Positions 31,669-33,881 of a DNA stretch of 64,000 nucleotides are shown here, one piece after another. Position 1 is the stretch's first letter, and each line of letters begins with the position of its first letter. This DNA comes from Spirochaetota bacterium (GTDB lineage: Bacteria > Spirochaetota > UBA4802 > JAFGJZ01). The stretch spans positions 84,488-148,487 of the forward strand of contig DAOPBR010000002.1 in the NCBI GenBank assembly GCA_035395685.1. The letters are read 5' to 3'. Made by a program: the position numbers and the translations under genes. The notes under the pieces were generated by a model. The model did not search any database. It saw only the letters and a list, made by a program, of their open reading frames with translations, and was not told the origin of the DNA.

Positions 31669-32112
31669 ACTTCACCTTCAGAATAGTTTTTTAGATGTTT
31701 CCGGTAAAGAATTATATCTTTACGTGTCTGTTACTGCAATAAAACAAAATACAGTGAAATGGCTACCAATTAAATAACTACTTCACCATAGAACCCCGAA
31801 TCTATTCTCCTGATAAGCATCTTGTTAAGTTTATAAAAAGCTTCTTCGCACACAAGGGCATAACTTTTCCCAAATTTTAACAACTCATTTTCATGAGGTA
31901 CTTTTTGCAATGGAATGAACTTTCCGGCATTTATATAACCCATCATATTTCCCATACAGGAGGCATCTCATGAAACTACTTGTATCAATTTTAACATTTT
32001 ATGTCATCCTTTTTTTACATTTAGCAGGGGACAGTCATAGTAAGATGCAATTAAAACCCTCGTTCTTTTGAAACGAATGTTTTAATTGCATTAAGAAAGA
32101 TATAATAATATA

Positions 32113-32545
32113 GTCAAGCCTCACGACGGATAAGTAGCGGTAGGCTGACACGTGTTGCCTCGTTTACACCGCCGCCCGATCAACCACGTAGTCTCCGTGG
32201 AGTCTTCAGGGTAGACGAATCTCCCGGAGATATCTCATCTTGGAATGGGCTTCCCGCTTAGATGCTTTCAGCGGTTATCCCTTCAGAACATAGCTATGGG
32301 ACTATCTAAAAAAGTGTGTACGGGAATATCATCTCAAGGATTTTTTCCAAACCGAAACCAACCGTTTCTACAAGTGCGATCTCAATCTTCTCTCCCGTCA
32401 GATCGGTCTTTCCGTCCAATTACAGGCAGTAAGCATCTTCACTAACATTACAATTTCACCGAGCCCCGTTGAAACAGCGACCGAGTCGTTACACCTTTCG
32501 CTCAGGTCTAAACTTTCCCGACAAGAAATTTCGCTACCTTAGTTA
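32113..32545 (-). rRNA. Partial, internally deleted and mutated 23S rRNA fragment (likely pseudogene)
   Basis: The reverse complement contains AAGGTAGCGAAATTTCTTGTCGGG..GTGAAATTG..GACGGAAAGACC (equivalent to about E. coli 1925-2075) joined to ..GGGATAACCGCTGAAAGCATCTAAGCGGGAAGCC..GGTGTAAACGAGGCAACACGTGTCAGCCTACCGCTACTTATCCGTCGTGAGGCTTGAC (the 3'-terminal domain VI). About 600 nt are missing between the two parts. The first part carries many substitutions. An 11-bp perfect hairpin (gcaattaaaac...gttttaattgc, 32058-32100) sits in the 3' flank. Confidence 0.7.
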
Positions 32546-32546
32546 T

Positions 32547-33881
32547 TTACTCTATTGCCTGCAAAGAACGTTTTTTTATTATATTGCTGTAATATCTTCC
32601 GCTCTTTTTAATAATTCTTTTTTGAGAATCATAGTCAACTCCTATAATTCCAAATCTTTTATCATATCCGAAAGCCCATTCGAAATTATCCATTAATGAC
32701 CAGACATAATATGCTATCACATTTAATCCTTCTTCATTCATTTTTACAACTGCCTCAAGATGACTTCTTAAATATTCCAGCCTTTCAGTATCTTCAATTT
32801 CACCATTTTTTATTTCATCTTTAAATGCTGAACCATTTTCAGTAATCATTACCGGAATATCAGTATATTTTTCTCTAATCTGTCTGACAATATCAATAAA
32901 ACCTTCAGGAGAAATTTCCCAACCCATAGCAGTCTTCTTTCGGCCCATGTCAACATGCGATCCCTGCAAGAATGCATCTCGGTCATAACGCATGTTAAAA
33001 TCCATGTAGTAATTAACTCCAAGAAAATCTGTTTCTCCATTTATAATTTTGAGATCATCATCCTGAATGTGAGAAAAATCAATATGATTGGACTCGTAAT
33101 AATCAAGCATATCAACCGGATACTGACCTTTAAAAAGAGGTTCTAAAAACCATCGATTGGCAAAACCGTCATATCTTGAAGCTGCGAGCTTATCCGTTTC
33201 TGTTTCCGAATATGGATATGCAGGTCCTAAATTTAGAGTTATTCCAATTTTTGATTTAAGCCCCGTTTGCCGGAATATATTCAAAGCTCTGCCATGAGTC
33301 AGCAAAAGGTGATGCGCGGTTTGAATAGCATCCTGAAGATTTTTATGCCCTGGAGCATGCTGACCATAAAGATGCCCAAGCATACTTATGCAATACGGCT
33401 CATTATGAGTAACCCAGTATTTTACCCTATCTCCGAATTTATTAAATAAAAGTTCTGAATAATCTTCAAAATATCCGCAGATTTCTCTTGAAATCCATCC
33501 GCCCTTCTCATACATCCATTGAGGCAAATCCCAATGATACATAGTCAGCATCGGACTTATTCCATTATCAAGAAGCTTATCTATTAATCTATTATAAAAA
33601 TCAATTCCCTTCTCATTTACATGTCCGGGATGAGGAATAACTCTCGGCCAGGAAACAGAAAATCTGTAAGAATCAAGCCCGATTTCTTTCATCAATGCAA
33701 TATCATTTTCATAAAGATGATAATGGTCGCATGCAACATCTCCATTATCTCCATTAGCAATTTTACCGGGAATATGCGAAAACACATCCCAGATAGAAGA
33801 AGTCTTTCCATCACTATCATGTGCTCCCTCAATCTGATATGCTGCAGTTGCTGCACCAAAAATAAAATCCTTCTCAAACAT
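32547..33881 (-). CDS. GH1 beta-glucosidase
   Basis: Catalytic motifs VTHNEPYC (acid/base Glu) and MITENGSAF (nucleophile Glu). Full-length GH1, 444 aa. Confidence 0.9.
   Translation of the reverse strand: MFEKDFIFGAATAAYQIEGAHDSDGKTSSIWDVFSHIPGKIANGDNGDVACDHYHLYENDIALMKEIGLDSYRFSVSWPRVIPHPGHVNEKGIDFYNRLIDKLLDNGISPMLTMYHWDLPQWMYEKGGWISREICGYFEDYSELLFNKFGDRVKYWVTHNEPYCISMLGHLYGQHAPGHKNLQDAIQTAHHLLLTHGRALNIFRQTGLKSKIGITLNLGPAYPYSETETDKLAASRYDGFANRWFLEPLFKGQYPVDMLDYYESNHIDFSHIQDDDLKIINGETDFLGVNYYMDFNMRYDRDAFLQGSHVDMGRKKTAMGWEISPEGFIDIVRQIREKYTDIPVMITENGSAFKDEIKNGEIEDTERLEYLRSHLEAVVKMNEEGLNVIAYYVWSLMDNFEWAFGYDKRFGIIGVDYDSQKRIIKKSGRYYSNIIKKRSLQAIE

Follow-up and report, generated by a model that had tools for sequence, protein, structure and literature searches.

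Genomic setting of the 23S rRNA fragment

The 64,000-nucleotide (nt) stretch analysed here, hereafter the window, belongs to an uncultured spirochaete and comes from contig DAOPBR010000002.1 (positions 84,488 to 148,487, forward strand) of the Spirochaetota bacterium assembly GCA_035395685.1; all coordinates below are positions in the window. A gene for a GH1 beta-glucosidase (32547-33881, minus strand, 444 aa) is directly followed, on the same strand, by about 430 nt of sequence related to the 23S ribosomal RNA (rRNA) gene. This fragment is the leftmost part of a 2.66-kb cassette specific to the strain; beyond the cassette lies yjdM (29459-29851, plus strand), convergent with the GH1 gene. 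The fragment is probably a non-functional scrap of a 23S gene whose source lay outside this organism's own rRNA operons.

Rfam was run on the whole window at the gathering threshold, which for the bacterial large-subunit (LSU) rRNA covariance model (RF02541) is a score of 50. The scan gave a significant LSU_rRNA_bacteria match at 32123-32450 on the minus strand (112.5 bits, E 1.2e-32), in agreement with the initial annotation, which had assigned about 430 nt of this strand to 23S rRNA from the sequence alone. Unlike this whole-window gathering scan, the Rfam 'evalue' mode applied to the 2.5-kb sub-region 31000-33500 returned no match, a discrepancy that we put down to a quirk of filtering. The match spans model positions 2045-2912 and is interrupted by one gap of 548 positions, corresponding to domain V including the peptidyl-transferase centre, and by a second gap of 25 positions, corresponding to helix 95 (the sarcin-ricin loop). 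These gaps bear out the internal deletion that had been proposed between the two recognizable parts. Weaker 23S homology continues upstream of the Rfam match as far as 32542, that is, back to about position 1925 in E. coli numbering.

Read in the direction of the 23S gene, the fragment starts with a 5' block (32405-32542, minus strand) that corresponds to E. coli positions ~1925-2064 and helices 70-73 and is 87% identical to host-type 23S genes. This block was aligned by means of the identical sequence in the Logan contig L005, which is discussed below, and by BLAST to a real 23S sequence. It is followed by a degenerate middle (32297-32404, minus strand) with traces of helices 94 and 96. In plain alignment, similarity of the middle 116 nt (32297-32412) to 23S is not significant, and a stretch of about 50 nt has no 23S counterpart. 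In place of helix 95, 25 model positions are replaced by 4 nt. The 3' block (32113-32296, minus strand) extends from position ~2760 to the mature 3' end, covers helices 97-101 and is 83% identical to host-type 23S.

The ~430 nt of the fragment compare with 3004 nt for host-type 23S genes; domains I-III are also absent. The fragment lies outside any rrn operon, with no 16S or tRNA genes upstream and the GH1 gene adjoining instead. No second copy of it was found within the window. The only other RNA gene in the 64 kb is an 84-nt tRNA gene with a long variable arm (48279-48362, minus strand), 16 kb away.

Decay of the fragment and asymmetry between its blocks

The two blocks differ in their state of preservation. 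Among positions highly conserved in the Rfam consensus, the fragment alone departs at 8 of 89 for the 5' block, compared with none of 69 for the 3' block. The upstream part had been described as matching roughly positions 1925-2075 with many substitutions and the 3' part as well preserved; the contrast between the two is upheld by these counts. The 5' block additionally carries 11 singleton departures at columns that are invariant in five real 23S sequences, and 2 of its 13 local pairs are broken. The folding z-score of the whole region was −1.4, no better than that of shuffled sequence.

With respect to the features of a functional 23S gene, the fragment matches the LSU model and lacks full length, domain V, helix 95, the conserved bases and the operon context. 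It combines the rRNA homology, truncation and disabling lesions by which rRNA pseudogenes are recognized. As judged from its sequence, it is almost certainly non-functional, a dead piece of 23S.

After removal of singleton decay sites, the distance to host-type 23S was about 5% for the 5' block and about 15% for the 3' block. The resulting ratio of about 3 stands against 3'/5' ratios of 1.0-1.7 among pairs of real 23S sequences. This asymmetry could reflect two sources, a younger 3' part, or rates that are uncalibrated at short distances.

Host-type 23S genes

The proteins encoded in the window are exact matches to proteins of metagenome-assembled genomes (MAGs) labelled 'Spirochaetota bacterium'. 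A metagenome scan with the 23S sequence of L005 recovered ten contigs (L086-L095) with complete operons, arranged as 16S-tRNA-tRNA-23S-terminator with no linked 5S gene. Their 23S genes are 99.4-100% identical among themselves. The genes flanking these operons fall into the same 90% protein clusters, with proteins from the same MAGs as those of the window, and one operon contig shares a sample with one window-type contig. From species group and sample, we infer that the ten operons carry the host-type 23S gene.

Two different downstream contexts were seen among the ten operon contigs. The position equivalent to A2058 is G in seven of the ten copies, which read GGACGGGAAGACC, and A in the remaining copies (L089, L091 and L092) as well as in the fragment. 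G at this position is the classic macrolide-resistance change.

Origin of the parent 23S gene

Alignment to the host-type genes gave the 87% and 83% identities stated above. The region is indeed a decayed, internally deleted piece of 23S, as first described. The nature of the differences points to a parent outside the host's own operons. Fragment and host were compared over the 38 local pairs of helices 97-101, taken from the Rfam structure line. Twenty-four pairs were the same, five showed compensatory double changes and three one-sided compatible changes; four were broken in the fragment only and none in the host only, while one was non-standard in both and one fell at a gap. When the host sequence was mutated at random to an equal extent, the mean number of compensatory pairs was 0.44 and the probability of five or more was 1e-4. 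Random decay of the host sequence would also break 9.0 ± 2.3 pairs, compared with the four observed.

With Treponema saccharophilum as the outgroup, 15 changes in the 3' block fell on the fragment branch and 13 on the host branch, a symmetric pattern expected of two functional lineages. In the 5' block, the corresponding numbers, also with the Treponema outgroup, were 14 and 3. At one helix 71 pair the fragment reads G.A, against G-C for the consensus and A-U for the host, which puts it one step from the former and two from the latter. The donor was probably related nonetheless. In the 3' block, the distance of the fragment was 19% to host-type 23S, 23% to Treponema and 27-29% to Monoglobus, Burkholderia and Acinetobacter. 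The fragment and the host operon also end in the same manner: the mature 3' end is followed by ATATTATTA and a hairpin, and a 5S gene is lacking.

The extent of divergence leads in the same direction. Fourfold-site divergence between alleles of the species group is 8-16%. The 13-19% by which the fragment differs from host 23S exceeds the 4-8% neutral divergence per lineage, which argues against a decayed local copy. An ancient local relic would be erased by now, and a recent one could not differ so much or in such a manner. The parent of the 3' block thus appears to have been a functional 23S gene of another, related lineage, as the five compensatory pair changes (P ~1e-4 under random decay) suggest. 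Derivation from the organism's own rRNA genes, which the term pseudogene commonly implies, does not describe the fragment, given its 83-87% identity, the compensatory pairs and the symmetric 3' branches.

A search of PLSDB with the 3' block gave as its best match L108 (NZ_AP025291.1), the 8.4-kb Treponema saccharophilum plasmid pTSrrn, which carries the rrn operon of that species together with a replication gene.

Downstream flank and hairpin

The mature 3' end of the 23S part is followed by an operon-type flank (32103-32112, minus strand), in which TATATTATTA matches the CATATTATTA found after the 23S 3' end in real operons. Because this operon flank is retained, the fragment was copied from DNA and not from mature rRNA.

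Next comes a long hairpin (32045-32091, minus strand) whose outer stem is a perfect 13 bp and whose inner stem has up to 7 bp. The initial annotation had noted an 11-bp hairpin resembling a processing stem; the hairpin is real, with a longer stem. Its position is that of the intrinsic terminator in host-type operons, which speaks against a processing stem. Its stem is A+T-rich, its tail reads CTTACTATGA without a U tract, and it was not called by the terminator scan. The G+C-rich stem and subsequent U tract that define an intrinsic terminator are thus both missing from it. The terminator of the host operon folds at −24.6 kcal/mol and has a T7 tail.

The 277 nt that adjoin the hairpin (31768-32044, minus strand) are DNA of unassigned origin, present only in the allele of the window. 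They contain an orphan open reading frame (ORF) of 61 aa (31770-31955, minus strand). Among 5.8 billion proteins, this ORF had no homologue but itself, and it had no Pfam match; judging by these searches, it is probably not a gene.

Left junction and the GH1 gene

The stop codon of the GH1 gene is followed by ATAACT (32541-32546, minus strand), a native 3' flank also present in L099, an allele without the fragment. The switch to strain-specific DNA can be placed exactly, between 32541 and 32540; across this left junction the sequence is GAGTAAATAACT/AAGGTAGCG in the window and GAGTAAATAACT/TTCGATG in L099. At this junction there is a 2-nt microhomology (CT) with C1925-U1926 of 23S. The 23S part begins 4-6 nt after the GH1 stop codon, and not 2 nt from it as first described. 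The junction sequences contain no terminal repeats or target duplication, only the 2-nt microhomology. A Pfam scan and precomputed matches revealed no mobility domains in the neighbouring genes examined, and the terminator scan found no intrinsic terminator between the GH1 gene and the fragment.

The GH1 protein is four codons (QAIE) longer than its 440-aa relatives, since an ancestral TAG became CAG and translation runs on to a TAA (window 32547-32561). We considered whether the insertion had created this extension and rejected the idea, because fragment-free strains of the L099 type have it as well.

The variable slot between GH1 and yjdM

Orthologous loci of close relatives show what the space between the two genes holds in other strains. 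In the window, the slot comprises 2661 nt (32540-29880), made up of the rRNA fragment, the 277 nt described above, a WG-repeat protein gene (30580-31668, minus strand) and an S26 signal peptidase gene (29962-30438, minus strand). In the loci L099-L103 and L104-L107, 305 nt lie between GH1 and yjdM in place of the 2661 nt. In L096/L097, 113 nt stand in place of 780 nt, and after them come a WG-repeat and an SH3 gene. The window becomes homologous to the L096 allele again at 31767, and to L099/L104 at 29879, 28 nt past the yjdM stop codon. In comparison with the latter alleles, the remaining cassette with the WG-repeat and S26 genes (29880-31767, minus strand) is also strain-specific. The strain-specific DNA reaches further than the coordinates first given for the fragment, to 31768 relative to one allele or to 29880 relative to the two others.

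The three fragment-free alleles come from strains whose GH1 genes are 96-98% identical at the DNA level. Rfam found an LSU match in none of nine fragment-free loci. The fragment is dispensable, being absent from the orthologous locus in close relatives. The variable DNA fills the space between the two stop codons, leaving about 6 nt on the GH1 side and 28 nt on the yjdM side. Seen across these alleles, with three unrelated cassettes at one place, the GH1-yjdM space has the character of a typical slot for strain-specific cassettes, a recombination hot spot.

Searched for by exact match, both the S26 protein and the ORF within the insert turned up in window-type contexts only. The best match of the WG-repeat protein, among proteins that share the repeat, was 45% identical; its orthologues were not listed in that search, which gave no donor context. 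In species genomes, no GH1 relative exceeded 51% identity, and none offered an orthologous context.

Authenticity of the assembled sequence

The exact GH1 protein is present on 19 contigs. In assemblies of four JGI samples, 2.9 kb of the window including both junctions is 100% identical, and the ORF inside the insert occurs on contigs from NCBI, JGI, Logan, ENA and GEM. None of the real rRNA genes recovered equals the fragment sequence. The suspicion of an assembly chimera, raised when the fragment was first described, does not survive these observations.

Short-k Logan assemblies do tangle at this place: L004 ends at 32436, L113 starts at 32275, and L005 (6927-7170) runs from GH1 through the 5' block into normal-looking 23S. 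The 5' block of the fragment and host-type 23S have an exact 34-mer in common, and the crossing in L005 occurs because of it; the word length of the Logan assemblies, k = 31, is shorter than this shared sequence. The four mismatches of L005 to the window all lie after the 34-mer, at four sites where real 23S differs from the fragment. By this comparison it is L005, with GH1 joined to real 23S, and not the window, that is the true chimera. We also considered L005 as an undeleted allele of the fragment, and rejected this in view of these mismatches and because, beyond them, its sequence continues as normal 23S.

Alternative explanations

That real rRNA reads were mis-joined into the contig has next to no probability left. 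The tangling of L005, L004 and L113 at the fragment is what might suggest it, but the crossing in L005 is accounted for by a 34-mer longer than the Logan word of 31, and four independent JGI assemblies agree exactly on the sequence, with the insert on contigs from several other sources. Moreover, the fragment is 13-19% off the real 23S of the community and has deletions and mutations of its own, which mis-joining cannot create. A relic in place, as the initial annotation envisaged, would mean that an rrn operon of the organism's own once stood at this locus and was deleted down to ~430 nt, so that GH1 now adjoins it. The natural 23S 3' end, the ~10 nt of operon-type flank and the hairpin at the terminator position are all kept, as this would predict, and the 34-mer that the 5' block has in common with host-type 23S lies in variable helices. 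Against it stand the three other alleles, with GH1 genes 96-98% identical, that have no rRNA sequence, and in which the native ATAACT runs into unrelated sequence. The 83-87% identity to host 23S, the five compensatory pair differences (P ~1e-4) and a divergence above the per-lineage neutral value speak against it as well, and we regard such a relic as highly improbable.

It is rather unlikely, though less so than either of these, that the fragment is a mosaic of two sources, with an old, decayed, host-like 23S in the 5' block and a younger, more distant one in the 3' block, joined through the degenerate middle. The distance ratio of about 3, the unequal branch lengths (14 vs 3 and 15 vs 13) and the contrast in conserved-site decay would all fit; however, the counts are small, the four outgroups include none that is close, and fast helices saturate first, which leaves the ratio uncalibrated at short distances. 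The blocks are collinear, with an order and orientation that fit a single source, and the helix 71 pair indicates that even the 5' block is not host-type. The clean 3' block also bears on a possible function. The rRNA-like tail, consisting of the 3' block and hairpin, might have been exapted as the 3' untranslated region of GH1, stabilizing or terminating the transcript or binding ribosomal proteins or rRNA-processing enzymes. It lies directly 3' of GH1 on the same strand with no terminator called in between, and its 3' block, in contrast to the decayed 5' block, departs at none of 69 conserved sites and retains 34 of 38 pairs. Nevertheless, we consider exaptation very unlikely: the fragment was found in one clonal allele only and sister strains manage without it, the whole region folds no better than shuffles, the hairpin has no U tract, and a recent origin from a working 23S explains the clean 3' block equally well. 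Nor did genome and viral pattern scans reveal a homologue; these scans for diverged copies required an exact 23-mer, and the 23-mer specific to the decayed 5' block had no match in 185,579 species genomes or in viral contigs.

Several points weigh against a dead piece of foreign 23S. The operons are linked to the strain through species group and a shared sample rather than by contiguous assembly. No donor was found, and the case for a foreign source is built on substitution patterns instead of a better match in another genome. That the 3' block is so clean (0/69 vs 8/89) was not expected; a second source, a younger age of this part or some constraint may lie behind it. The copies recovered are all identical and so carry no variation in which selection could be seen.

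Possible route of arrival and coincidence with an endonuclease site

For a foreign 23S scrap, the following course would account for the locus. A piece of the rrn operon of a related bacterium, extending from 23S position ~1925 to the gene end with ~10 nt of 3' flank and the hairpin, may have arrived at the GH1-yjdM slot by illegitimate joining, with the 2-nt microhomology at the left junction. Domain V and the sarcin-ricin hairpin would have been lost, either earlier or once the piece was in place, to deletions at short repeats, and universally conserved bases would have been struck by point mutations. At present, the fragment is probably no more than a transcribed untranslated tail of the GH1 mRNA, and the hairpin may incidentally stop or stabilize the transcript.

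The left end of the 23S part coincides with a known cut site. The 23S sequence of the fragment begins CT/AAGGTAGCGA, inside the CTAA overhang of the homing endonuclease I-CeuI; I-PpoI cuts at the corresponding position. The I-CeuI target in bacterial 23S genes is TAACTATAACGGTCCTAAGGTAGCGA, and cleavage produces a 3' overhang of CTAA (PMC2790883). Sites listed in ribosomal DNA (rDNA) include 1917, 1931, 1952, 2593, 2604 and 2657 (PMC11270868). For a single site, the chance of a start within these 4 nt is ~0.1%; allowing for the many known rDNA endonuclease sites raises it to a few per cent. The start coincides with the right-hand product of a cut of the I-CeuI/I-PpoI class, joined via two overhang bases. 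In contrast to that class, the locus has neither an intron nor an endonuclease gene, and the left half of the site is not represented; the likeness is a positional coincidence only. The other breakpoints of the fragment are not on listed endonuclease or intron sites. One deletion end lies ~7-9 nt from intron site 2604 and the helix 95 deletion spans 2657; we judged both uninformative.

It is conceivable, if quite unlikely, that the sequence records one of two further histories. Either the fragment would be an endonuclease footprint, in which cleavage of a 23S gene at the I-CeuI/I-PpoI site (CTAA overhang, 1925-1928) was followed by the joining of its right end, unresected and through two overhang bases, to an unrelated chromosomal break, or its clean 3' block would have been kept for a function in the GH1 transcript. 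On the endonuclease account, the cut gene would have come with DNA taken up from a related bacterium, or from a donor of the cassette. If true, the locus would preserve a natural case of foreign rDNA captured ectopically in bacteria through the action of an endonuclease.

Relation to known systems and significance

Truncated remnants of rRNA genes (rRNA pseudogenes) occur in bacterial genomes and are usually taken for decayed local copies. Our literature search turned up no paper dedicated to such remnants. The fragment resembles them in being a partial gene outside an rrn operon, with essential domains missing and disabling changes; it differs in that it probably does not derive from the host rRNA genes and sits in a strain-variable cassette. 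With a bacterial 23S gene (RF02541) it has in common the homology over ~1925-2064 and ~2760-2904, the 3' flank motif, the hairpin and the lack of a 5S gene. Unlike such a gene, it is ~430 rather than 3004 nt long, lacks domains, is 13-19% off the host gene and has a protein gene adjoining it.

Filler DNA captured at chromosome breaks is the principle behind inserts of organelle DNA in eukaryotic nuclei. The fragment is similar to such inserts as a foreign, non-coding piece with a 2-nt microhomology, no target duplication or terminal repeats, and later decay. The case differs in that it concerns a bacterium and a piece of rDNA, and the event is inseparable from the exchange of the whole 2.66-kb cassette.

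Practical consequences arise for metagenomics. Scraps of rRNA-like sequence near ordinary genes break or mis-join short-read assemblies, as seen here for three Logan contigs including one true chimera, and they may pass for rRNA genes or contamination in genome bins. What would be new is confined to a demonstrated foreign origin and the cut-site coincidence. Knowledge of ribosomes and gene regulation is unchanged, and the fragment would be ordinary genomic debris. The label 'pseudogene' on an rRNA sequence does not have to mean a decayed local copy, and compensatory changes together with branch symmetry can reveal a foreign source even where the donor is unidentified.

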